From an uncultured Gammaproteobacteria bacterium (GTDB lineage: Bacteria > Patescibacteriota > Microgenomatia > UBA10105 > UBA927), in NCBI GenBank assembly GCA_964397755.1, contig CAYNJY010000002.1, positions 15,620 to 79,619 on the forward strand: a DNA stretch of 64,000 nucleotides, in the 5' to 3' direction. Positions 400-35,253 of the stretch are shown here, piece by piece; positions within the stretch are counted from its first letter, which is position 1; each line of letters opens with the position of its first letter. A model generated the notes under the pieces. The model had not been told where the DNA came from, did not search any database, and saw nothing but the letters and a program-made list of their open reading frames with translations. Made by a program: the position numbers and the translations under genes.

Positions 400-588
400 G
401 TGAAGCATATGCATGCACAATGTCCGATATGTGATGCCGAGTTTGAGATTCTTGGGTCAACCGAGGTCACAGAGATTATAAGTTGCCACGAATGTCAGAA
501 TAAGCTGGAAGTGGCGAGCATTCATAAAGATACCAACAGGGCAGAAGTGAAAGAAGCGCCGAAAATAGAAGAAGACTGGGGAGAGTAA
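400..588 (+). CDS. lysW: LysW amino-group carrier protein (likely ATG start at 409)
   Basis: About 60 aa with an N-terminal Zn-ribbon (CPICD...CHEC) and an acidic C-terminus ending EDWGE, the LysW signature. It lies immediately upstream of lysX. Confidence 0.75.
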   Translation: MKHMHAQCPICDAEFEILGSTEVTEIISCHECQNKLEVASIHKDTNRAEVKEAPKIEEDWGE

Positions 589-601
589 TACAATAACAAC
601 T

Positions 602-1465
602 ATGAGAAAGAAAAAAATACGTATTGGAATACTCCATACCACCATACGTGGCGATGAGAAGTTATTGATCGATGCGGCTCAAAACCGCGCTATCGATCTG
701 TCACTTATTGACGTTCGTGAGCAGGTCTTTGATCCGCTGGTAGAGCGACCTCGTGTGGATATTGTACTGGAGCGATGTGTGTCGACAGTGAAGGGGATGC
801 ACGCGGTGGATTTCTATGAAAGTCTTGGGATACCCGCGGTGAATCCATTGGTCATTGCCAGAACTTGTGAAAACAAGTTCGTGACGTCCCTTGCGCTCGT
901 TCGTCACCAGGTCCCCACACCGCGTTTTGCGCTGGTGTTTGGCGAGGAGCAGGCCAAAAAGGCCGTTGGTGTGATAGGTGGCTACCCGGCGGTCATAAAA
1001 CCGGTGACGGGTTCGTGGGGAAGACTGATTGCCAGGGTAAATGATGAACACGCACTGGAAGCAGTGCTAGAACAGAAGACGATATTGGGTGGACCGCATC
1101 ATCACGCATTTTATATACAGCAGTTTATAGAGAAACCGGGAAGAGATATCCGGATACACGTTATCGGTGGGCGGGCTGTTGCGGCAATATACCGGACGAG
1201 CAGTCATTGGATTACCAACACCGCGCGAGGAGCGGAAGCTATCGCATGTCCGATAGACAAGGATTTGGGAAAAATCGCAAAAAAAGCAGGGGAGGCGATC
1301 GGGGAAGGGGTATTGGGTATTGATGTTTTTGAAACCAGCGGGGGGTACGTCGTGAATGAAGTGAACCACACCATGGAGTTTAAAAACGTCCAGAGGGTTA
1401 CCGGCATTGATATAGCAGGGATTATCCTGGATTATTGCTTGTCCGTCGTACGGAGGCAGCTATGA
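602..1465 (+). CDS. lysX: LysX/ArgX ATP-grasp ligase (RimK family) that loads the substrate onto the LysW C-terminus
   Basis: RimK-like ATP-grasp sequence. It follows lysW directly, and its stop overlaps the argC start as ATGA. Confidence 0.7.
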   Translation: MRKKKIRIGILHTTIRGDEKLLIDAAQNRAIDLSLIDVREQVFDPLVERPRVDIVLERCVSTVKGMHAVDFYESLGIPAVNPLVIARTCENKFVTSLALVRHQVPTPRFALVFGEEQAKKAVGVIGGYPAVIKPVTGSWGRLIARVNDEHALEAVLEQKTILGGPHHHAFYIQQFIEKPGRDIRIHVIGGRAVAAIYRTSSHWITNTARGAEAIACPIDKDLGKIAKKAGEAIGEGVLGIDVFETSGGYVVNEVNHTMEFKNVQRVTGIDIAGIILDYCLSVVRRQL

Positions 1466-2514
1466 AAGGGAAAATCCGCGTTTCTATCATCGGAGGTTCG
1501 GGGTATGCAGGGGGAGAGCTGTTGCGCATTCTTTTATTTCACCCCCATGTGACCATCCATCAGGTGACGTCGCGGCAGTTTGCCAGCGAGTCGGTGAGCC
1601 GTGCACACCCGAATTTGCGCAAAGTCACTGACCTCATCTTTTGCGATATGGATGATCTGGTGCCCTGTGACGTGCTTTTCGTCGCGCTGCCTAATGGCGT
1701 TTCCATGAGTTACATGAAGGAATTTGTGCAAAAGGCCGAGTATATTGTAGATTTGGGAGCAGATTTTCGATTGAAAAATCCAAGCACGTTCGCCCATTGG
1801 TATCGCACCGCGCATCTGCTGCCAGAACTCCTGCCGCGATTTATCTATGGCATCGCAGAACTTCGTAGAAAGGAACTGAAAAAGGCTACATACGCCGCCT
1901 GCGCCGGTTGTGAGGCAACGGTTTCTATTCTGACACTCTATCCGTTGGTGAAACATCGGCTTATCGAGGTTGATCGGATCATCGTCGACGCAAAAATGAG
2001 CAGTTCCCAGGGCGGAAATACGCCGAGCCTTGCATCACACCACCCGGAACGCCACGGAGTCGTCCGGTCATACAAACCCACGGACCACCGCCATAGCGCC
2101 GAGATAGAACAGGAATTGTCCGTTTATGATGATCATATCCGTGTGTCTGTTTCGGCGACGACCATAGAAATGGTGCGGGGGCTTCTCGTCACTATCCATG
2201 TAGTGCCCAAGGGCGATGTCACCGAGAAAGATGTATGGACAGCGTACAGAACGGAATATCAGAACGAGCCATTTATACGAATCGTGAAAGAACGGGAGGG
2301 AATCTACCGTTACCCTGAGCCAAAGCTCCTTATCGGTACAAATTACTGCGATATAGGATTTGCCTTGAGCAAGCGGGAGAACCGGCTGGTGGCCATAGGC
2401 GCCATAGACAACCTTGGGAAAGGAACCGCCGGTCAGGGTGTCCAAGCGATGAATATCATGCTCGGTTTTGACGAACGGGCCGGACTGTCGTTCCCCGGCA
2501 TACATCCGGTGTGA
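1462..2514 (+). CDS. argC: N-acetyl-gamma-glutamyl-phosphate reductase family (LysY/ArgC)
   Basis: An NAD-binding GGSGYAGGELLR N-terminus and ArgC-like length. A GGAGG RBS precedes the ATG at 1462. Confidence 0.8.
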   Translation: MKGKIRVSIIGGSGYAGGELLRILLFHPHVTIHQVTSRQFASESVSRAHPNLRKVTDLIFCDMDDLVPCDVLFVALPNGVSMSYMKEFVQKAEYIVDLGADFRLKNPSTFAHWYRTAHLLPELLPRFIYGIAELRRKELKKATYAACAGCEATVSILTLYPLVKHRLIEVDRIIVDAKMSSSQGGNTPSLASHHPERHGVVRSYKPTDHRHSAEIEQELSVYDDHIRVSVSATTIEMVRGLLVTIHVVPKGDVTEKDVWTAYRTEYQNEPFIRIVKEREGIYRYPEPKLLIGTNYCDIGFALSKRENRLVAIGAIDNLGKGTAGQGVQAMNIMLGFDERAGLSFPGIHPV

Positions 2515-2518
2515 AGCT

Positions 2519-3313
2519 ATGATTATTCTAAAAGTCGGTGGGGGTAAAGCTATGAACTGGGAATATATAGCGGAAGATGTCAACGCCTTGCAAGAGGATG
2601 TGATCATCGTGCATGGAGCCAACGCATATGCCTCAGAGATAGCAGAAAAACTCGGGGTTAAAGAAACAGTTATCATGTCTCCTTCCGGACACACCAGTCG
2701 ATACACGGATAAGGAAGCCATGGATGTTTTGACCATGACGTATGCCGGATTGGTAAACAAGACGATCGTTTCTGTCTTAAGGAGACACAAGATCAATGCG
2801 GTTGGCCTCTGCGGAGCAGACGGCGGGGTTTGGATGGGGAAGAGGAAGCACGCCATTTTATCCCAGGAAAACGGAAAGGTGAAAGTTATCCGTGATTCTC
2901 TGACCGGTAACGTCGAGTCAGTGAATAGGAGTCTTATCATGCTTCTTGTCGATCACAAATATACACCGGTGCTCACGATACCGGCGATCACGCGGGAAGG
3001 GGAGCTTATCAACGTAGACAACGATCGGGCGGTTGCCGTTATGGCCCGGGATTTAGCGGTCAAGAAGATCGTCATGTTGTTTGAGGCGCCGGGATTACTG
3101 CGCGACAGGAGCGACGAATCGACGAAAGTTGCACATATCAGGAAAGATGAGATCGATATGTATATCCATAAGGTAGAGGGAAGGATGCGCAAAAAGCTCC
3201 TCGGTATCAAAGAAGCATTTTTGTTCGGGGTGACCGACGTGTATTTGGGCGACGGCAGGATCGCGCATCCGATCGCGAGTGCTTTGTCCGGTGCCGGAAC
3301 GGTTATCCAATAA
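2519..3313 (+). CDS. argB: Acetylglutamate kinase family (LysZ/ArgB)
   Basis: An amino-acid kinase fold with the N-terminus MIILKVGGG. The listed ORF starts at 2468, but the ATG at 2519 immediately after the argC stop is more likely. Confidence 0.75.
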   Translation: MIILKVGGGKAMNWEYIAEDVNALQEDVIIVHGANAYASEIAEKLGVKETVIMSPSGHTSRYTDKEAMDVLTMTYAGLVNKTIVSVLRRHKINAVGLCGADGGVWMGKRKHAILSQENGKVKVIRDSLTGNVESVNRSLIMLLVDHKYTPVLTIPAITREGELINVDNDRAVAVMARDLAVKKIVMLFEAPGLLRDRSDESTKVAHIRKDEIDMYIHKVEGRMRKKLLGIKEAFLFGVTDVYLGDGRIAHPIASALSGAGTVIQ

Positions 3314-3316
3314 ATT

Positions 3317-4477
3317 ATGAGTGCTTCATCGCCAAAAAATTATTTTGTTGCCTCTTACCCGGATCGGGGTGTCGCGTTTGCCGGTGGCGAGGGCATGTAT
3401 CTTACGGAAAAGAGAGGCACCAAGTACTTGGATTTCGGCAGCAACTACGGCGTGAGTATATTCGGGTATAACCACCCGAGAATTACTCGGGCCCTCTCTG
3501 ACCAGTTGCATCGGCTCGTGAGCCTGCACGGTTCGTTTGGAAACGATGTACGGCAAGAGGCAGCCAGACGCTTGGTCGAGCGTTGCGGCGGAAAGATTTC
3601 CAAGGTGTTTTTTTCTAATTCCGGGTCTGAGGCCATGGAAGCGGCGCTGAAGTTTACTAAACTTTTCACCGGTACCTCACGCTTTGTTGCTTTCCGAAAT
3701 AGCTATCACGGCAAAACGCTCGGTTCCCTTTCCGCCACATCAGGTGAAAAATATCGTCAGGCATTTGAGCCTCTCTTGTGGCACTTTACTCATGTCCAGC
3801 TTGGTGACAAAAAAAGCCTGGAAGAAGCTGTAAAGGGAGAGATCGCCGCGATCATTTTAGAACCAGTACAGGGAGAAGGAGGCCTCTACGCCGCGCCGGC
3901 AGGGTACCTGGAATATCTTCAGGCATTGTGTAGCGAAAGAAACATCCTATTGATTGTTGATGAGATACAATGCGGCACAGGGAGAACCGGCACGTTTTTG
4001 GCAAGCCAGCTGTATGGGCTGGCGCCGGACATCATGTGCCTCGGCAAGGGTATAGCAGGAGGGGTCCCTGTAGGAGTAACATTGGTGAGCGAATCTGTGG
4101 CAGAACGTATTCCTGTTCACGTGCATACCTCCACGTTCGGTGGTAATCCCTTAGCGTGTGCAGGCATCGTCGCCGTGCTTAAAGAGTTTGAAGATGGTGC
4201 GTTACTCAAGCACGTTGGCGATATGGGTGCATATTTTCTCCGGCAACTGAAGACCCTGACTCATCCGAGCATTGTTGACGTACGCGGCGTTGGTCTGATG
4301 CTCGGAATAGAACTGCGTGAGAATGTCACGCCAGTTTTAAAAGCGCTCCAGGATCGTCGCATTATTGCCATTCCCGCCGGGTCGCATATCGTTCGCTTCC
4401 TTCCGCCGTATATCGTCACTAAACAAGATATAGATACGGTTACGGCAGCACTCAAAAACATATTTCAACAGTTGTAA
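3317..4477 (+). CDS. argD: Acetylornithine / LysW-gamma-L-lysine aminotransferase (class III PLP aminotransferase, LysJ/ArgD)
   Basis: A class-III aminotransferase with the motifs GNHPR...DEIQCGTGRTG...LGKG. Confidence 0.8.
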   Translation: MSASSPKNYFVASYPDRGVAFAGGEGMYLTEKRGTKYLDFGSNYGVSIFGYNHPRITRALSDQLHRLVSLHGSFGNDVRQEAARRLVERCGGKISKVFFSNSGSEAMEAALKFTKLFTGTSRFVAFRNSYHGKTLGSLSATSGEKYRQAFEPLLWHFTHVQLGDKKSLEEAVKGEIAAIILEPVQGEGGLYAAPAGYLEYLQALCSERNILLIVDEIQCGTGRTGTFLASQLYGLAPDIMCLGKGIAGGVPVGVTLVSESVAERIPVHVHTSTFGGNPLACAGIVAVLKEFEDGALLKHVGDMGAYFLRQLKTLTHPSIVDVRGVGLMLGIELRENVTPVLKALQDRRIIAIPAGSHIVRFLPPYIVTKQDIDTVTAALKNIFQQL

Positions 4478-4487
4478 TAACGCCACT

Positions 4488-5150
4488 ATGTGTAGGTTTC
4501 TCCTCGTTCGATCCAAAAAAAGGCTGTACCCAGGGACATTGCTCCAGGCATTCGCCGGGATGTGTCAGAAAAGTCACGCGCCGGATGGAGATTGGCAGGG
4601 CGACGGGTGGGGTGTGGCGTGGAAAGAAGGTGATCATTGGCAGCTTATGAAATCTCTCGCGCCGATATGGGAGGAAGAGGATCGTTTTTCCTCTATCGGA
4701 CAATCACATATTTTTGTAGCTCACGCCAGAAGCGCAGGCTTTCCACAGCATAAGGGAGTTCTTGCGTATAACCAACCCTATATTCATAACGAGCTCGCGT
4801 ATGTATTTAACGGCATGATGCGAGGGGTCGCATTGTCGATAAACGTGCCGGGGAATATCGGCGCCCAAAAAATATTCTCCTTAATCGTCAATGCCGCAAG
4901 CAGAAATAGGCCGGACGAATCTTTGTCCTACGTGCGGGATTTACTGCGAAGACATACAAAAAAGACTGAAGGGATGAATATAGGTCTCGTCCTGGGGGAT
5001 ACGCTGTATGCGCTTTGTGATTATGAGAACAATCCTGACTATTTCAGTCTTCGTTACTATGCAGATGAGAAGTTCACCCTGATTTGTTCAGAGCCAATCG
5101 GCGCTTATGAGTGGAGAATTATGGGTAAAGGTGAAATACTTACATTCTAA
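4488..5150 (+). CDS. Class-II (Ntn) glutamine amidotransferase-like hydrolase, EgtC/YafJ-like
   Basis: Starts Met-Cys (MCRFLL), the Ntn nucleophile position. DGWGVAW, HARSAGF and YNQPY resemble the GATase_4/6 / EgtC family. It is the last gene of the lysW operon. Confidence 0.55.
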   Translation: MCRFLLVRSKKRLYPGTLLQAFAGMCQKSHAPDGDWQGDGWGVAWKEGDHWQLMKSLAPIWEEEDRFSSIGQSHIFVAHARSAGFPQHKGVLAYNQPYIHNELAYVFNGMMRGVALSINVPGNIGAQKIFSLIVNAASRNRPDESLSYVRDLLRRHTKKTEGMNIGLVLGDTLYALCDYENNPDYFSLRYYADEKFTLICSEPIGAYEWRIMGKGEILTF

Positions 5151-5188: not shown

Positions 5189-6640
5189 ATGGTAACCATC
5201 GATGAGTTGAAAAAAACACGTTTGGAAAAACTGGAAGCCCTTAAAAAACGTGGAGTTGATCCGTATCCAGGTAAAGCTTTACGCAAGCAAACCATCAAAG
5301 AGGCGCGTAGCAGTAGGGGAGAGGTTTCCGTGGCCGGTCGGGTGGTGGGGCTCCGCGGGCACGGGAAGATCGTGTTTACGGATTTGACGGATGAGACAGG
5401 GAAAATCCAGTTGGTTTTTAAGGCCGACAGCCTTGATCAAAAGATATATAGCTTCCTTGAGTTCATCGACATCGGTGACTTTCTGGACGTCCAAGGGGAG
5501 GTCGGCAAAACGCAAGCCGGCGAGGTGTCGGTTTTTGCGAAAAACTTCCAGATTATCACAAAGGCCCTTCGCCCCCTGCCTGACCAGTGGTCAGGTTTCA
5601 AAGATGTCGAAGAGCGCTACCGGCAACGCTACGTGGATCTCCTGATGAACCCTGACGTGCGGGAGATTTTCGTCAAGCGAGCCAACGTGATTCGGTTTTT
5701 ACAAGAGTATCTTTACAAAGAAGGGTTCATGGAGGTGGAGACACCGGTTTTACAGTCTATTTACGGCGGAGCCGCGGCTAAGCCATTCACCACCCACCAT
5801 AATGCTTTGGACATCGATTTTTACCTGCGCATTTCCGATGAGTTGTACTTAAAACGATTGATCATTGGAGGATTTGAAAAAGTGTACGAAATCGGCAAAG
5901 ACTTTCGCAACGAAGGCGTCGATCGGAATCACAACCCGGAGTTTACGATGCTTGAGTTTTACTGGGCGTATGCCGATTACGAGAAGCTCATGGAGTTTAC
6001 CGAGGGTATGTTTGCGGCGCTCCTTACGGCAGTGCATGGCTCTCTGGTCCTGGAATATCAAGGAAAGCAGCTTGATTTTACCCCGCCCTGGCCGCGGGTA
6101 ACCTATAGGCAAGCGCTCCTGAAGCACACGGGTATAGATATTGATGAGGCCGATACCGCAGAAAAACTAAAAAAATTCGTCAAAGAGGAGGGGATCGCTT
6201 TTGATGAGAAGAGAACCGTTGGTTACGGGGCGCTCCTTGATGCGCTGTATAAACAAACGACGCGAGCACACCTTGCAGGCCCACTTTTTCTTACCGAGCG
6301 GCCGACAGCCTTTGTCTCGCTGGCTAAACGATTGTCGACTGATCCGCGGAAAACTGCATCCTTTCAGCTTTTGGTTGCCGGCGAGGAACTGATTAATGCG
6401 TACAACGAACTTAACGATCCGCAAGATCAGGCTGACCGCTGGCGGGCGTCCGAGAAACTTGGGAAAAAGGGGCAAAGGGAGCATGAGGCCTTTGATAAAG
6501 ACTATATCCGGGCGCTTGAATACGGTATGCCGCCGACTGCCGGATGGGGACTGGGGATAGATAGGCTAGTCGCTATCTTGACCAATCAACGCTCCATTAA
6601 AGACGTCATCCTGTTTTCTACGCTTCGACCTGAGAAATAA
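5189..6640 (+). CDS. lysS: Lysyl-tRNA synthetase, class II
   Basis: Full length (483 aa) with an N-terminal OB anticodon-binding domain plus the class-II core (FRNEG, GGAAAKPF, GLGIDRL). Confidence 0.9.
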   Translation: MVTIDELKKTRLEKLEALKKRGVDPYPGKALRKQTIKEARSSRGEVSVAGRVVGLRGHGKIVFTDLTDETGKIQLVFKADSLDQKIYSFLEFIDIGDFLDVQGEVGKTQAGEVSVFAKNFQIITKALRPLPDQWSGFKDVEERYRQRYVDLLMNPDVREIFVKRANVIRFLQEYLYKEGFMEVETPVLQSIYGGAAAKPFTTHHNALDIDFYLRISDELYLKRLIIGGFEKVYEIGKDFRNEGVDRNHNPEFTMLEFYWAYADYEKLMEFTEGMFAALLTAVHGSLVLEYQGKQLDFTPPWPRVTYRQALLKHTGIDIDEADTAEKLKKFVKEEGIAFDEKRTVGYGALLDALYKQTTRAHLAGPLFLTERPTAFVSLAKRLSTDPRKTASFQLLVAGEELINAYNELNDPQDQADRWRASEKLGKKGQREHEAFDKDYIRALEYGMPPTAGWGLGIDRLVAILTNQRSIKDVILFSTLRPEK

Positions 6641-15510: not shown

Positions 15511-15652
15511 AAGGAACGGATCACTATGCTGGAGATCAATACTACCGTACGTATTCTATTCCGAAGAAAAAAATTACGAAGAAAAAAAATTGACCTGTTG
15601 ACATTTCAAAAATTTCTTACTACTGTTAATTCATTGTTTGTTGTCACACACC

Positions 15653-16789
15653 ATGACGATCGTCGTTCCCCCGTTGCAAAATTCTCCGGATAGTAAACAA
15701 TCGCCACTTCGTCCCCGAGGAACCGAGGTGATGTTGCCACATGGAGGACTGCCGGAAATTTTTCCTCCATACCTTGCAGACCTCATCGAGCGCACCGGCG
15801 GACCCGATGGACCAATCGGCAGACAATTTGTAGCCCGACCAAACCTCGAGAGTCGCTACTTTAAAGTGGGGATGAAAGATCCGCTCATGGAAGATTACCA
15901 CGAGGTTGCCCCGGGACTGGTCTATAAATATAGAAGCAACAGTAAAGACAAAAAGAAAAAGGGAGACTTTCCGTATAACGGCCGAGCGCTCTGGACGATC
16001 ACTCGCCACTGCGCCGCCTACTGCCGGTTCTGCACACGAGGCCGCGAAGTTGGGATTCCTCCAGGAAAAGAAGGTGGAAGTGCGGCGGCACTTGCCCATA
16101 CCCCGCATCTTCTCATGGACCAGATTGAGGAGACTCTCACGTTTATTACCAATGAACCGGGGCTTAACGAAATTATTCTCTCTGGCGGAGATCCCATGAC
16201 CGTGAATCCTAAAATACTTCAGTATGTCTTGGGGAAACTTGGAGAGCTCCAGCGGTTAGGGAAGTTGCGCATCATTCGCATCGGCACACGCGTGCCGGTC
16301 CATAATCCGCTCCTTTTTCGTGACGAACACTACGAGGCAGCGAAACAAGTCAGGAACCTGCGGCTCATGGTCCACATCAACCATCCGTTTGAACTCACGC
16401 CGCAAACGCGAGGGGTGCTTGAAAGATTCCGTAGGGAAGTCGGGGCGGTTGTCATGAGCCAGTCAGTGCTCCTCAAGGGCGTTAACGACAGCGCCGAGAC
16501 GCTGTATACACTCTTTTCCGAGCTCGCTTCCGAAGGAATCATCCCTTACTACGTTTTCCAAAACGATCCGGTCTATTGGGCGAAGCACTTCACGGTTCCT
16601 ATAAAACGAGCGATTAAAATCTGGCAGAAACTCCGGCCGAGATTATCTGGGGTGGCGGCCACCGCGCGTTTCGTCATCGACGTCCCCCAAGGTTACGGCA
16701 AAGTTCCGTTGCCAGAGGGCGCTGCCTGGAATATTGATTACAACAAAGGCTATCACGACTTCAAAGGAAAACGCTTTTCGCTTGAATAA
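15653..16789 (+). CDS. kamA: Lysine 2,3-aminomutase family radical SAM protein (KamA/EpmB-like); start ambiguous (ATG 15653 or ATG 15731)
   Basis: Has the CAAYCRFC radical-SAM cysteine triad in KamA/EpmB context. Depending on the start, length is 352 or 378 aa. Confidence 0.75.
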   Translation: MTIVVPPLQNSPDSKQSPLRPRGTEVMLPHGGLPEIFPPYLADLIERTGGPDGPIGRQFVARPNLESRYFKVGMKDPLMEDYHEVAPGLVYKYRSNSKDKKKKGDFPYNGRALWTITRHCAAYCRFCTRGREVGIPPGKEGGSAAALAHTPHLLMDQIEETLTFITNEPGLNEIILSGGDPMTVNPKILQYVLGKLGELQRLGKLRIIRIGTRVPVHNPLLFRDEHYEAAKQVRNLRLMVHINHPFELTPQTRGVLERFRREVGAVVMSQSVLLKGVNDSAETLYTLFSELASEGIIPYYVFQNDPVYWAKHFTVPIKRAIKIWQKLRPRLSGVAATARFVIDVPQGYGKVPLPEGAAWNIDYNKGYHDFKGKRFSLE

Positions 16790-30267: not shown

Positions 30268-31017
30268 ATGAAAGGAGTCGTTCTTGCTGGAGGGGTTGCT
30301 ACCCGACTGAGACCTCTGACGCTTGTCACCAACAAGCATCTTCTTCCTGTCTACAATAAACCGATGATTTTCTATCCAATGGAAACAATGCAGAAAGTCG
30401 GAATCAAAGAGGTCCTCCTTACGACAGCGGGTGACCATGTCGGAGATTTCGCGAATTTACTCAAGTCCGGAGAGGATTTCAACCTACGTCTTTACTATGC
30501 GATCCAGCAGAATCCAACCGGCGGTATTGCCGACGCGCTGGCGCTGGCCGAAGAGTTCGCGCGAAATGAACCTATTCTGGTCATTTTGGGCGACAACATT
30601 TTCAACTTTGACCTCAAAGCTTCCCTTGCCAAATTTGAAACGCAGATACAAAACAGCGGCAAGGGAGCGATGGTTTTTGGCGTCCATCGCAACACCGAGG
30701 CTCGGCAATACGGAGTAATAGATATGGATAGTAAAGGGAGAGTCCTGTCGATCGAAGAGAAGCCGGAAACGCCAAAATCCGATATCGCGCAAACCGGTAT
30801 ATATGTGTACGACAGACGGCCGTTTGAGTTCATCCGCCGGCTTAAACCGTCAGCACGAGGTCAACTCGAAGTGACGGATCTGAACAATATGTACCTCGAA
30901 GAAGGAACACTTCTATGCGAAGTGATCGATTGGTGGGTGGACGCAGGCACATCCCATGACGAGCTTCTCCGGGCCAACGTTCAGGTAGCGGAATTCGTCA
31001 AACAAGGGAAACTATAG
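30268..31017 (+). CDS. rmlA: Glucose-1-phosphate thymidylyltransferase-like sugar nucleotidyltransferase (short form)
   Basis: Has the GXGTRL motif (LAGGVATRLRPLT). rmlB follows directly. Confidence 0.7.
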   Translation: MKGVVLAGGVATRLRPLTLVTNKHLLPVYNKPMIFYPMETMQKVGIKEVLLTTAGDHVGDFANLLKSGEDFNLRLYYAIQQNPTGGIADALALAEEFARNEPILVILGDNIFNFDLKASLAKFETQIQNSGKGAMVFGVHRNTEARQYGVIDMDSKGRVLSIEEKPETPKSDIAQTGIYVYDRRPFEFIRRLKPSARGQLEVTDLNNMYLEEGTLLCEVIDWWVDAGTSHDELLRANVQVAEFVKQGKL

Positions 31018-32034
31018 ATGAGACTCCTCGTGACCGGCGGCGCCGGCTTCATCGGTTCGAATTTTGTCCTCTACTGGATGGCGCATCATCCAGGTGATGA
31101 CATTGTGAATCTTGATGCGCTTACGTACGCAGGGAATCTCGAAAACTTGATTTCTGTTGCCGAGAACCCGCGGTATCGGTTTACCAAGGCTGATATTTGT
31201 GATGCGAAGGGTGTGGCGGCGGCAATGGCGGGCGTTGATATCGTCGTACATTTTGCGGCAGAAACCCACGTTGATCGATCAATCCTTGAACCGGCCCCGT
31301 TTATCATGACGAATGTTATTGGGACACAGATTCTTCTTGAGCAGGCGTTGAAAGCAAAGGTCAAACGATTTCATCACATCTCGACAGACGAGGTGTTCGG
31401 GTCGCTCGAACTTGATGATTTGAATAAATTTAGTGAACGAACATCTTACGATCCCAGAAGTCCATATTCAGCAAGTAAAGCAGCTTCAGATCACCTTGTA
31501 CGAGCGTTCTACCATACGTACGGTTTGCCGGTTACCATAACCAACTGTTCAAACAACTACGGTCCGTATCAGTTCCCTGAGAAGCTTATACCCCTTACTA
31601 TCACCAATATTCTTGAAGGCAAAAAGGTTCCCGTCTATGGTGACGGCTTGCATGTCCGCGACTGGCTCTACGTTGAGGATCACTCGAGGGCAATAGAGTT
31701 GGTGCTTGAGAAAGGCAAGGTCGGCGAAACCTACTGTGTCGGCGGACTTAGAAAGGACCTGAATAATAGTACGATTATCAGAAAAATTTTCTCACTCATG
31801 GGGGCGGATGAATCGGTGGTAGAGTACGTGAAGGATAGGCCTGGTCATGACCGCCGCTACGCTATCGACTGGACGAAAATTAAAAGCGAACTCGGGTGGG
31901 TGCCTCAGCATGACTTCGATACGTGGCTTGCCAAAACCATTGATTGGTACCGGGCCAACCAGTCTTGGTGGAGGAGAGTCAAAAGCGGTGAGTATCAAAA
32001 ATATTATCGTCAACAGTACCAAGGCGCATCATGA
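31018..32034 (+). CDS. rmlB: dTDP-glucose 4,6-dehydratase
   Basis: TGGAGFIGSNF plus YxxxK in an extended SDR; 338 aa. Confidence 0.85.
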   Translation: MRLLVTGGAGFIGSNFVLYWMAHHPGDDIVNLDALTYAGNLENLISVAENPRYRFTKADICDAKGVAAAMAGVDIVVHFAAETHVDRSILEPAPFIMTNVIGTQILLEQALKAKVKRFHHISTDEVFGSLELDDLNKFSERTSYDPRSPYSASKAASDHLVRAFYHTYGLPVTITNCSNNYGPYQFPEKLIPLTITNILEGKKVPVYGDGLHVRDWLYVEDHSRAIELVLEKGKVGETYCVGGLRKDLNNSTIIRKIFSLMGADESVVEYVKDRPGHDRRYAIDWTKIKSELGWVPQHDFDTWLAKTIDWYRANQSWWRRVKSGEYQKYYRQQYQGAS

Positions 32035-32921
32035 TGAACATACTCGGAACGGGCTTGTCTGGGCTAATCGGCTCAAGGGTGGTGGAGCTTCTTTCGTCAG
32101 AGGTTAATTTTAACAATATTAGTCTAGAGACTGGCGTTGATATCACCGATTATCTCGCGGTTGAAAAACACCTCAAGCAAAATGATGGCAGGTGGGTGTG
32201 GCATTTTGCCGCCGCAACTGATGTCGCAGCCGCCGAAAAAGAGCGGAGCCAAGCTCAAGAGTCGGTTTCGTGGAAAGTCAATGTTGAAGCCACGAGAAAC
32301 ATTGCCCAGATTTGCCAACAGCTGGGCAAACATCTGTTGTATCTGTCGACTGATTATGTTTTTAGAGGAACGCAGGAGTTTTATACCGAGAGAGAAGAGC
32401 CTAATCCTGAGGGTTGGTATGCCACAACGAAATACGAAGGCGAAAAAATCGTCTTAGCGCTTGGCGAGTTGGGACTGGTCGTGCGACTTTCCAACCCCTA
32501 TCGCGCCAATCCAGTTGGCAAGCGGGATTTTGTCCACAAAATGATGGATAGGTTCGCCTCAGGCCAACCAATTGCAGCGCCTTCTGATTCTCGCTTTAAT
32601 CCTACCTTTGTTGACGATTTGACTTATGTGCTCAAAACTTTGGTTGAAACCAACGCTTCTGGAGTTTATCATGCGGGTGGCGGTGGGGGTTTGTCGCAGT
32701 ATGAGGCGGCTATGGCTATCTGCGACACCTTCGGTTATAAGCGAGAATTAGTGAGCCCGACAACGTTTGTGCAATTTATCGAGGGACGAGCGCCATTTCC
32801 TAAGTTGGCGATACTCGCCAATGGCAAAATTGAAAAATTGGGACTCAGGATGCGCACCTTCTCTGAAGGTCTGGTCGAAGTGAAACGGCAGGAAAAGAGA
32901 ATAGCCCAAAGTCTGGCCTGA
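32031..32921 (+). CDS. rmlD: dTDP-4-dehydro-6-deoxyhexose reductase (RmlD-like)
   Basis: An RmlD-like substrate-binding SDR, coupled to rmlB. Confidence 0.65.
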   Translation: MMNILGTGLSGLIGSRVVELLSSEVNFNNISLETGVDITDYLAVEKHLKQNDGRWVWHFAAATDVAAAEKERSQAQESVSWKVNVEATRNIAQICQQLGKHLLYLSTDYVFRGTQEFYTEREEPNPEGWYATTKYEGEKIVLALGELGLVVRLSNPYRANPVGKRDFVHKMMDRFASGQPIAAPSDSRFNPTFVDDLTYVLKTLVETNASGVYHAGGGGGLSQYEAAMAICDTFGYKRELVSPTTFVQFIEGRAPFPKLAILANGKIEKLGLRMRTFSEGLVEVKRQEKRIAQSLA

Positions 32922-32954
32922 AGTTGTCCTTTCCGTTATAATGGGGGAAACCTG

Positions 32955-32981
32955 GGACGCGGGAGCGCGTCCATACTTTTT
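32955..32981 (+). terminator. GC-rich hairpin (GGACGCG/CGCGTCC, GGAG loop) followed by T5, between rmlD and ugd
   Basis: The hairpin is at 32955-32972, and the U-tract ends 3 nt before the ugd ATG. Confidence 0.35.
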
Positions 32982-32983
32982 CT

Positions 32984-34282
32984 ATGACGATTGCCTTTGT
33001 TGGACACGGCTATGTGGGACTGGTGACGGCGGCGGTCTTTGCGGATTTAGGGAACACCGTCTGGGTGGTGGGGAGGACAAAGGAAAAAATTGAAAAGCTC
33101 AAGAAAGGGACGGTCCCGTTTTATGAGCCAGGACTCGCCGAATTAGTGAAACGCAACGTCGAGGCGAGACGGTTACTCTTTACGCTCGATTACGGCGAGG
33201 CAGTCCCGCCGTCGAGTATTATTTTTATTTGCGTTGGAACGCCCTCGAAAGACAACGGGGAGGCAGATTTGGGGAGTGTGTTTGACGCGGCAGGAAAGAT
33301 AGGGAAAAGCATGGTCGGCTATAAAGTTGTTGCCACCAAGAGCACGGTTCCTCCAGGGACAAATAAGAAGATAGTCGAAATTATAATGAAGGCGAAGCCC
33401 GAAGGGTCCTCCTTTGCGATTGCGTCCGTCCCTGAATTTTTGCGGGAAGGTAGCGCAATCGCAGACACGCTCCGCCCGGATCGGGTGGTCATCGGTACCA
33501 CCTCCGATCGGGCCGAGGCCATGCTTCTGGAGCTTCATACATCCATCGACGGCAAGGTGGTCTTGTGCAACGTCGAGACTGCGGAGCTTATCAAATACGC
33601 TTCCAATGCTCTGCTCTCTACCAAGATATCTTTTGCGAACGCCGTCTCTTTTCTGTCTGAGAAAGTCGGTGCCGATGTTGAGAAAGTGCTCGAAGGGGTG
33701 GGTCTTGACCGTCGTATCGGCCGGAGTTTTCTTTTCCCCGGCGTCGGCTACGGCGGGAGCTGCTTCCCCAAAGATGTGAAGGCACTTATATCGATCGCAG
33801 CAGAGTATGGGTACGCGTTTAACTTACTGAAAGCTGTCGATGAAATAAATCGTCAAGCAGTGCTTAACTTTGTTGATAAAATCACTCGACACTTTCATGG
33901 GAAGGTTACGGGCCAAAAAATTGCGGTGCTCGGTCTCTCATTTAAGCCGAACACGGATGATATGCGTGAAGCCCCATCGATCGGAATTATTACCGAGCTT
34001 GTCAAACGTGGGGCGCTGATTAAAGCCTATGATCCTGTGGCTATGAACAATGCAAAGCAGGTATTGCCGAAAGGAGTCATATATGCCAGGGATGCTTACC
34101 AGGCAGCCGCAGGGGTGGACGCAGTAGCGGTCGTTACCGAGTGGAACGAGTTTCTTCAGCTTGACCTCGTACGTCTTGCAAAAAGGATGAAGAGTTTGGT
34201 ATTGTTTGATGGTCGAAACATATATGATCCTGCCCGAGCCAAACAACTAGGTTTTTTGTACTACGGTATCGGGCGAATGTAA
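32984..34282 (+). CDS. ugd: UDP-glucose 6-dehydrogenase family
   Basis: An N-terminal GxGxxG (VGHGYVGL), a catalytic Cys region (GGSCFPKD), and 432 aa. Confidence 0.85.
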   Translation: MTIAFVGHGYVGLVTAAVFADLGNTVWVVGRTKEKIEKLKKGTVPFYEPGLAELVKRNVEARRLLFTLDYGEAVPPSSIIFICVGTPSKDNGEADLGSVFDAAGKIGKSMVGYKVVATKSTVPPGTNKKIVEIIMKAKPEGSSFAIASVPEFLREGSAIADTLRPDRVVIGTTSDRAEAMLLELHTSIDGKVVLCNVETAELIKYASNALLSTKISFANAVSFLSEKVGADVEKVLEGVGLDRRIGRSFLFPGVGYGGSCFPKDVKALISIAAEYGYAFNLLKAVDEINRQAVLNFVDKITRHFHGKVTGQKIAVLGLSFKPNTDDMREAPSIGIITELVKRGALIKAYDPVAMNNAKQVLPKGVIYARDAYQAAAGVDAVAVVTEWNEFLQLDLVRLAKRMKSLVLFDGRNIYDPARAKQLGFLYYGIGRM

Positions 34283-34293
34283 GAGGAGACACC

Positions 34294-35253
34294 ATGGCTG
34301 CCAAAAGAGCATTTATCACTGGAATCGCAGGATTTGCAGGAAGTCACCTCGCGGAGCACCTCCTCTCAAGGGGATTTGATGTGTACGGGCTCTGTCGGCC
34401 GAGAAGTAAAACAGACAATATCGAAACAATAAAAGCTAAACTTCATTTAGAAGATGCGGATCTTCTTGACTCCCACAGCCTCTACACGACAATAGCACGG
34501 ATAAAGCCACAGTATATCTTTCACTTGGCTGCTCAGTCGTTTGTGCCCACATCGTGGGGATCTCCGTCTGTGACGCTAGAGGTAAACATTGTGGGATCTG
34601 CGAATATTTTTGAGGCAGTTCGGCAGGTTGGGATTGATCCAGTGATCCAAATAGCGTGTTCCTCAGAAGAGTACGGACTCGCGCAACCAAACGAAATGCC
34701 AATTAAGGAGACAAATCCGTTGCGTCCGCTTTCGCCGTACGCAGTCTCGAAGGTGGCAATGGACTATCTTGGGTATCAGTATTATCAATCATATAGAATG
34801 AGGATCGTTCGCACACGGGGATTTAATCACACAGGGCCGCGACGTGGCGAGACGTTTGCGGAATCAAACTTTGCAAAGCAGATAGCGCTTATCGAAAAAG
34901 GGAAACAAGAGCCAGTTATCTCCGTTGGCAATCTTGACGCGGCGCGTGATTATACCGACGTTCGGGATATGGTGCGAGCATACCTTTTGGCAGTTGAGAA
35001 GTGCGATCCGGGTGATGTGTATAACATCTGTACGGGAACATCCATTCGCATTGGCGACATGCTGAAACTGTTGCTTTCTTTTAGTAAAGTTAAAGCGGAG
35101 ATTAGGACCGACCCTTCCAGGATGCGGCCATCAGACGTACCGATTCTCATCGGCGACAATACGAAGTTTGTAAAAAGGACCGGATGGAAGCTTGAGATTC
35201 CTTTCAATAAAACAATGGAAGACCTTCTCAACTACTGGCGGCAGCGTGTGTAA
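34294..35253 (+). CDS. NAD-dependent epimerase/dehydratase (extended SDR; GDP-mannose-4,6-dehydratase / Rmd / UXS-like)
   Basis: An ITGIAGFAGSHL N-terminus and 319 aa. Confidence 0.65.
   Translation: MAAKRAFITGIAGFAGSHLAEHLLSRGFDVYGLCRPRSKTDNIETIKAKLHLEDADLLDSHSLYTTIARIKPQYIFHLAAQSFVPTSWGSPSVTLEVNIVGSANIFEAVRQVGIDPVIQIACSSEEYGLAQPNEMPIKETNPLRPLSPYAVSKVAMDYLGYQYYQSYRMRIVRTRGFNHTGPRRGETFAESNFAKQIALIEKGKQEPVISVGNLDAARDYTDVRDMVRAYLLAVEKCDPGDVYNICTGTSIRIGDMLKLLLSFSKVKAEIRTDPSRMRPSDVPILIGDNTKFVKRTGWKLEIPFNKTMEDLLNYWRQRV

Follow-up and report, generated by a model that had tools for sequence, protein, structure and literature searches.

A candidate cysteine N-terminal nucleophile amidohydrolase in the place of LysK in LysW-dependent lysine operons

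Which enzyme would set lysine free from its carrier protein LysW when a contiguous lys operon contains no gene for LysK, the M20-family peptidase assigned to this step? The question is raised by 64,000 nucleotides (nt) of contig CAYNJY010000002.1 from an uncultured bacterium (hereafter the window), in which lysW, lysX, lysY, lysZ and lysJ are followed, at 4488-5150 on the forward strand, by a gene for a 220-aa protein that is predicted to be a cysteine-dependent N-terminal nucleophile (Ntn) amidohydrolase with the class-II glutamine-amidotransferase fold. A preliminary description of this DNA had proposed that the protein is a non-orthologous replacement of LysK, and this proposal is supported here by the co-conservation of the Ntn gene with lys genes, by the M20-free state of the loci searched and by the restriction of LysW proteins ending in Gln to sampled loci with the Ntn gene. 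Based on these sequence comparisons, we consider it probable that the Ntn protein is a LysW-specific γ-glutamyl amidohydrolase that performs the last lysine step in place of the M20 enzyme.

The contiguous operon was found as it had been described, with all of its genes on the forward strand. lysW (400-588) has a GTG start, an alternative ATG at 409 giving a protein of 59 aa, and encodes a CxxC...CxxC zinc ribbon with the C-terminal tail EEDWGE. The protein passes the Pfam model Zn_ribbon_LysW (PF21344; 35.3 bits against a cut-off of 27), falls below two stricter NCBIfam cut-offs (48.5 against 75 and 43.3 against 53.2), and aligns end to end with the LysW structures of T. kodakarensis, T. thermophilus and S. 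tokodaii. The following genes encode the ATP-grasp ligase LysX, which would load 2-aminoadipate on LysW (602-1465; TIGR02144, 322 bits, cut-off 275.6), the argC-family LysW-aminoadipyl phosphate reductase LysY (1462-2514; TIGR01850, 378 bits, cut-off 233.6), the [LysW]-aminoadipate kinase LysZ (2516-3313; NF010659, 276 bits, cut-off 223) and the argD-family class-III aminotransferase LysJ, which would make LysW-γ-lysine (3317-4477; Aminotran_3, 350 bits; 318-324 bits with LysJ-specific models, under their cut-off of 700). The gaps from lysW through to the Ntn gene are 13, -4, 1, 3 and 10 nt, the start of lysY overlapping the stop of lysX by 4 nt.

To place the Ntn gene among its relatives, we scanned one genome per species and obtained 41 loci encoding Ntn relatives, 39 of which could be evaluated. 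lysJ lies directly 5' of the Ntn gene in 38 of these 39 genomes (38 of the 41 loci), at a median gap of 2 nt, and the three exceptions are two Ntn genes at a contig edge and one orphan. Contigs that are long enough show the cluster in full as lysW-lysX-lysY-(inserts)-lysZ-lysJ-Ntn. By their labels, the loci come from Gottesman-, Levy-, Roizman- and Shapirobacteria, Paceibacterota, Saccharimonadales, Dehalococcoidia, Coprothermobacterota, Acidobacteriota and Aminicenantes; many taxonomic labels of metagenome-assembled genomes (MAGs) are unreliable, however, and several "uncultured Gammaproteobacteria" titles look like placeholders. The nearest named relatives of the window protein are from Gottesmanbacteria and Microgenomates, and the family comprises about 270 representatives (50% identity) at E ≤ 1e-10. 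A second order, lysW-(homocitrate synthase)-lysX-lysY-Ntn-lysZ-lysJ, was present in 27 metagenome loci among the matches listed and in MAGs labelled Gammaproteobacteria. Its Ntn proteins form a more distant, mid-cluster subfamily of 2,947 clusters (90% identity) at E ≤ 1e-10, the named members of which stem from marine MAGs with that same label. Co-conservation with lysW clusters, which the preliminary description had named as a test of its proposal, is thus very strong and is found in two independent arrangements, and the Ntn gene is therefore an internal, conserved member of 2-aminoadipate lysine clusters.

Several of these clusters have further features. Four MAGs labelled Gammaproteobacteria (L167, L174, L175 and L176) share a six-gene lysW-X-Y-Ntn-Z-J operon with conserved flanks. 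On its downstream side lie genes for phosphoenolpyruvate carboxykinase and an S9/S15 peptidase, on its upstream side those for a CDGSH zinc-finger protein and a deaminase, and no homocitrate-pathway genes were found within 10 kb. One cluster carries a 1.1-1.2 kb insert between lysZ and lysJ with an open reading frame (ORF) of 358 aa that matches nothing in Pfam or NCBIfam (L025:5703-6779); an insert is present at the same gap in L028, L029 and L034, and in L028 it is split into shorter ORFs. Tandem pairs of lysW (L065, 6424-6957) and of lysX (L142, 4005-5707) also occur in Ntn-type clusters.

We searched for LysK using E. coli ArgE and authentic Thermococcaceae LysK as probes. The sensitivity of the search is indicated by ArgE itself, which finds T. 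thermophilus LysK (PDB 5xoy) at E = 1.8e-8 and Thermococcaceae LysK at 2.3e-6. At E ≤ 10, no M20 protein was encoded by any ORF of the window or of the 41 genome loci, none by the preceding 10 kb, read from a second assembly of this organism (L173), and none by any LysW-containing metagenome locus among the matches listed, which amounts to about 150 loci overall. The earlier statement that no M20 gene is present therefore holds for the window, its upstream flank and the related loci. In a control cluster from Thermococcaceae (L170), the order is homocitrate synthase-homoaconitase-homoisocitrate dehydrogenase-lysW-X-Y-Z-J-Peptidase_M20, so that the M20 gene sits immediately after lysJ, in the slot taken by the Ntn gene at 4488-5150 of the window. 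LysK, an ArgE homologue of Thermus, Sulfolobales and Thermococcales, thus shares with the Ntn protein its proposed step, its partners LysW, X, Y, Z and J and its position. The two folds are unrelated, LysK being a di-metal M20 peptidase whereas the Ntn protein would use a cysteine N-terminal nucleophile and a thioester. We know of no report that LysK deamidates a C-terminal Gln.

The family of the Ntn protein is less evident from its sequence than from its predicted fold. The protein begins with MCRF and carries DGDWQGDGWGVAW and HARSAGF. It scores 19.3 bits with the Pfam model GATase_4 (cut-off 23), which some relatives pass, and 44.3 bits with the NCBIfam model of EgtC (TIGR03442; cut-off 218.65). 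Neither Pfam nor NCBIfam has a model specific to the family, the members of which are named "hypothetical protein" or "glutamine amidotransferase" by their sources, and sequence searches of the PDB with the single protein and with a profile yielded no useful match (partial matches, E ≥ 0.007). A structure model built on 23 homologues had a predicted local distance difference test value (pLDDT) of 93.4 and a predicted template modelling score (pTM) of 0.91. When this model was compared with solved structures using Foldseek, EgtC was nearest (template modelling score, TM, 0.72-0.77; 17% identity), followed by stand-alone class-II amidotransferase domains (3mdn, 1te5) and then by the glutaminase domains of GlmS and PurF, with a Foldseek probability of 1.0 against EgtC, GlmS and PurF alike. 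As judged from the model, the protein is a Cys-Ntn hydrolase of the class-II amidotransferase fold with an EgtC-like architecture, outside the EgtC family. The label "EgtC-like" given in the preliminary description is accordingly apt for the fold and not for the sequence family.

The nearest solved structures (PDB 4zfj, 4zfk and 4zfl) are those of EgtC, which hydrolyses γ-glutamyl-hercynylcysteine sulfoxide in ergothioneine biosynthesis. Like the Ntn protein, EgtC is a stand-alone Cys-Ntn enzyme with the class-II amidotransferase fold; it cuts a γ-glutamyl amide and releases an amino-acid amine. While the substrate of EgtC is a free γ-glutamyl compound, the substrate proposed for the Ntn protein is a protein C-terminus, and, in a weak alignment, the Ntn protein is without the residue that binds an α-amino group. 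No egt gene was found among the neighbours of the Ntn genes, which are lys genes instead.

Comparing 40 sequences from both subfamilies, we found Cys2, His79-Ala80-Arg81, Phe107-Asn108-Gly109, Gly125 and Lys128 to be invariant; Met1-Cys2-Arg3 is listed among the invariant positions, with the MCR start counted in 39 of the 40 members. A profile alignment with E. coli GlmS and PurF is weak (hhalign E = 0.043), but both the fold match and the secondary-structure prediction are in accord with it. In this alignment, Arg81 corresponds to GlmS Arg73 and Asn108-Gly109 to GlmS Asn98-Gly99, whereas GlmS Asp123 (D127 in PurF) falls at Gly125, within an invariant Gly125-Ala/Ser126 segment that holds no conserved acidic residue. 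In GlmS, Arg73 binds the α-carboxylate of the substrate, the Asn-Gly pair forms the oxyanion hole, and Asp123 binds the free α-amino group of glutamine. Retention of the carboxylate anchor together with loss of the amino anchor would fit a glutamyl residue that is the C-terminal residue of a polypeptide.

The same residues bear on the possibility that the Ntn protein is a glutaminase that acts on free glutamine and not on LysW, supplying glutamate, the amino donor of LysJ, or ammonia. Its fold is that of class-II glutamine amidotransferases with Cys, Arg and Asn-Gly intact, as in GlmS, PurF and the YafJ-like proteins (1te5, 3mdn), and some sources label its relatives accordingly. The Ntn protein, however, lacks the synthase domain of GlmS and PurF and has no acceptor domain or partner, and the TDxE motif with the α-amino-binding Asp is replaced by an invariant G-A/S-Q/E-K. 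As a free-glutamine glutaminase would also leave unexplained why the clusters are free of M20 genes and why LysW-Gln is restricted to loci with the Ntn gene, we regard this role as very improbable.

This restriction emerged from the last residue of LysW. Among 32 LysW proteins from the genome loci selected by their Ntn gene, 21 end in Glu and 11 end in EDWGQ instead of EDWGE. Placed on a simple neighbour-joining tree of LysX and LysY from 31 clusters, these ends imply at least five independent switches between Glu and Gln, and near-identical LysW proteins may differ only in the class of the last residue, as in L006 (Glu) compared with L003 (Gln) and L025 (Glu) compared with L028, L029 and L034 (Gln). 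For a sample independent of the Ntn gene, we scanned metagenome DNA for the pattern [A/V/P/L]-P-x3-E-D-W-G-Q-stop and obtained at least 120 loci, and a LysW was recognisable in 107 of 120 among the matches listed. In the 33 loci among them whose contig spans the whole cluster, the Ntn gene was present in 33 and an M20 gene in none; 27 of these 33 have the mid-cluster order. Three loci of the mid-cluster subfamily that were picked by their Ntn gene all encode LysW-Gln as well. As a canonical control, we took the 120 LysW proteins that rank nearest to a profile built from the three characterised ones, a set that includes Thermococcales, Sulfolobales, Thermaceae and several Chloroflexota. Of these best 120, 116 end in Glu and none in Gln (Fisher p = 1e-8 against 11 of 32), and all three solved LysW structures end in EDWGE. 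In the samples taken, LysW-Gln is therefore confined to clusters containing the Ntn gene. Considering that LysX is an ATP-grasp ligase which activates the γ-carboxylate of the last residue of LysW, and that a terminal Gln bears an amide at this very position, LysW-Gln must be deamidated before it can be loaded.

A single activity would meet both needs. The reaction that defines the class-II amidotransferase fold is hydrolysis of a glutamine γ-amide. The bond in LysW-Glu(γ)-NH-Lys is of this type, with a bulkier leaving group, and EgtC cuts such a bond. After removal of the initiator Met, Cys would become the N-terminal nucleophile; Arg81 would grip the free α-carboxylate of the C-terminal residue of LysW, and Asn108-Gly109 would provide the oxyanion hole. 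The thiol would attack the γ-carbonyl of LysW-Glu(γ)-Lys so that lysine departs, and water would hydrolyse the resulting LysW-γ-glutamyl thioester, regenerating LysW-Glu for LysX. Since glutamine is the simplest γ-glutamyl amide, the same enzyme would also deamidate an encoded LysW-Gln to ligation-competent LysW-Glu, and the identity of the last codon would then be nearly neutral wherever the enzyme is present. An amidase acting on the C-terminus of LysW would account for the missing LysK, for the conserved place of the gene in the operon and for a drift between Glu and Gln that is seen only with the Ntn gene.

The same chemistry would serve if the amino group of 2-aminoadipate, and not water, were to resolve the thioester, so that LysW would move from lysine on to a new substrate without ATP, or if the enzyme edited LysW mis-loaded with, for example, glutamate. 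Other Ntn enzymes, γ-glutamyl transpeptidase among them, are known to transfer γ-glutamyl groups to amines, and synteny alone cannot tell hydrolysis from transfer. Every complete cluster nevertheless encodes the ATP-dependent LysX, which would be unnecessary were transfer the main route, and editing alone would leave the release step without an enzyme; transfer or editing thus seems quite unlikely as the function. We also considered the Ntn protein as a replacement of LysN, the 2-oxoadipate aminotransferase, and rejected this candidate because a lone glutaminase domain cannot transaminate.

Several points weigh against a lysine-releasing LysW amidase. The M20 search covered loci and not whole genomes, so that a LysK could be encoded elsewhere; the lysK gene of Thermus does lie outside the main cluster, and an Anaerolineales cluster of the Glu type (L171) has neither hydrolase nearby. 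Together with the tight tie between LysW-Gln and the Ntn gene, these points favour a narrower role, in which the Ntn protein only matures LysW-Gln by deamidation and lysine is released by an ordinary M20 LysK or ArgE from another part of the genome. However, about two thirds of the Ntn-type clusters, including that of the window, encode LysW-Glu and yet keep the Ntn gene translationally packed, which argues that deamidation is not its sole role. Repeated switches from Glu to Gln would furthermore require an amidase that was already there and was kept by another function, and maturation alone would explain neither the use of the LysK slot nor the M20-free loci. We therefore judge maturation alone to be unlikely. 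With a lysine-releasing amidase, LysK would be absent from these genomes as a whole.

The remaining points concern the samples, the active site and the supply of substrate. The Ntn member of a Peregrinibacteria locus (L039) is an orphan without lys genes within 6 kb, its neighbours (threonyl-tRNA synthetase, a rhomboid protein and a deformylase) being uninformative. Lone lysW genes with the EDWGQ end, with unrelated neighbours and neither lysX nor other lys genes nearby, were found at L072:13043-13225, L136:4236-4418 and L145:1951-2118 (the same as in L081), and a rule that Gln implies the Ntn gene cannot be evaluated there; L072 has an archaeal look, a gene for an L10e-like ribosomal protein adjoining lysW, and L145 and L081 are high in G+C. 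The profile used for the canonical control has Glu in its last column and slightly disfavours Gln ends. The active-site correspondences come from the weak profile alignment and the fold match and not from an inspected superposition. Finally, no gene for homocitrate synthase, homoaconitase or homoisocitrate dehydrogenase was found in the window or in the 10 kb upstream.

These homocitrate-pathway genes are present in related clusters. At least 15 related loci carry homocitrate synthase, the large and small subunits of homoaconitase and homoisocitrate dehydrogenase within the cluster or adjoining it; inserts that separate lysY from lysZ hold either homocitrate synthase alone or the complete set, and in L005 the set lies directly 3' of the Ntn gene. 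The product of these clusters should therefore be lysine. For the window, we turned to the signature positions of LysX (182, 192, 203 and 258/259 in T. thermophilus), where F-I-T-NS marks aminoadipate-specific LysX, Y-I-T-NA bifunctional LysX and I-Y-V-GF ArgX (PMC12998189). Mapped through an alignment with 1uc8, most relatives have F-I-T-NS, and the window LysX has H-I-T-NV, identical to that of L005. By these positions, the window enzyme is of the LysX or the bifunctional kind and not of the ArgX kind. As its signature is shared with a cluster that contains the homocitrate-pathway genes, lysine is the likely product in the window, and ornithine or arginine is less likely.

At L004:2242-2559 and L123:2012-2272, in clusters otherwise free of homocitrate synthase and homoisocitrate dehydrogenase genes, short pieces of these two genes resembling deletion scars were observed between lysY and lysZ. 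This suggests that some lineages have lost them from the cluster by deletion, and the abutting lysY and lysZ of the window may derive from a similar loss. In a Levybacteria-like clade (L012, L017, L026 and L036), the LysX signature is F-M-T-GL, which matches none of the published LysX and ArgX motifs, all four LysW proteins have the end QEDWGQ, and the loci lack a homocitrate synthase gene; the substrate may be a different one in this clade. Within the 10 kb that precede greA in the second assembly, upstream of the window, L173:2791-5390 encodes a 2-oxoacid:ferredoxin oxidoreductase of two subunits together with an AMP-binding enzyme, a ferredoxin and NifU, which could bear on the 2-oxoacid metabolism of this reduced genome.

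An encoded Gln at the end of a carrier has a counterpart in Pup. Pup is encoded as PupQ in some actinobacteria and as PupE in others, and Dop both deamidates PupQ and removes Pup from lysines (PMC8599861). Pup and LysW are both small proteins conjugated through the γ-carboxylate of a C-terminal Glu, with Gln or Glu encoded depending on the lineage, and the pattern seen with Dop is repeated here, the carrier ending in Gln or Glu and the Ntn gene being present in both kinds of lineage. In contrast to Pup, LysW is attached to the α-amino group of a metabolite for biosynthesis, and Dop has a glutamine-synthetase-like fold, uses ATP-derived phosphate and is not an Ntn hydrolase. The likeness is therefore one of analogy and not of homology.

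Around the operon, the C-terminus of greA is encoded at 25-228, and its 3' end is followed on the forward strand by a terminator-like hairpin with a T-run at 367-392 (stem 367-382, then TTTTTTTT), which is likely the upstream boundary of the operon. In a scan of the window for promoters and terminators, the counts were about those of shuffled sequence and only this hairpin was noteworthy; scans of the window for tRNAs and Rfam families found nothing. On the other side, lysS, for a class-II lysyl-tRNA synthetase, lies on the forward strand at 5189-6640, near the operon as had been reported, and starts 38 nt 3' of the Ntn gene. It is probably co-transcribed with the Ntn gene and is outside the pathway itself; lysS is also found directly 3' of the Ntn gene in four distant relatives (L016, L024, L030 and L038), a pairing of lysine synthesis and lysine charging that thus recurs. 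The lysine 2,3-aminomutase gene that had been placed nearby could not be upheld. The gene in question (15638-16789, forward strand) lies 10.5 kb away and encodes a KamA-family radical S-adenosylmethionine protein below every curated cut-off (182 bits with an AblA-like model, cut-off 396; 161 bits with a KamA model, cut-off 199), with no evident link to the lys operon. The remaining genes of the window are bacterial housekeeping and glycosylation genes. Among them, a sugar-nucleotide gene block (30268-35253) is followed on the forward strand by a long same-strand run of large ORFs (35263-60950), which opens with glycosyltransferases of the GT2 and PMT_2 types, as judged from the first three ORFs compared with Pfam.

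In the full-text literature, where subscription journals are thinly covered and an earlier mention is possible, we found no description of an Ntn-type LysW hydrolase, nor was the string EDWGQ found in the full texts searched. A 2025 paper by the group that defined the pathway names LysK alone as the hydrolase. What seems new here is a candidate non-homologous terminal enzyme, together with a Gln-encoded carrier, in a known pathway. In a preprint, the figure legend of a nanohaloarchaeal virus genome map gives LysW, a GlmS-type glutaminase domain and a carboxylate-amine ligase among the gene labels, with no link drawn between them (bioRxiv 10.1101/2025.02.15.638363). These labels could represent a viral trio of carrier, ligase and amidase. 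Among viral contigs, we found no relative of the Ntn family, and the LysW-Gln pattern gave only a chance match.

Taken all together, we lean, on balance, towards an unrecognised and widespread form of the lysine pathway, in which an Ntn amidase would activate a Gln "pro-form" of LysW and also release lysine, in the Candidate Phyla Radiation (CPR), Chloroflexota, Acidobacteriota and marine MAGs labelled Gammaproteobacteria. If this is true, a defined step of a well-studied pathway would be carried out by a non-homologous enzyme and an unnamed protein family would gain a role, while LysW encoded with a C-terminal Gln would need activation before it enters the pathway, which is unexpected for an amino-group carrier protein and would make the system a biosynthetic counterpart of Pup and Dop. 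Reconstructions that score the pathway as incomplete without LysK would then undercount lysine prototrophy, including that of reduced CPR genomes. Genomes with lysWXYZJ and without lysK may have a complete final segment of lysine biosynthesis, and these include members of the Microgenomates group of the CPR, which are usually deemed amino-acid auxotrophs.

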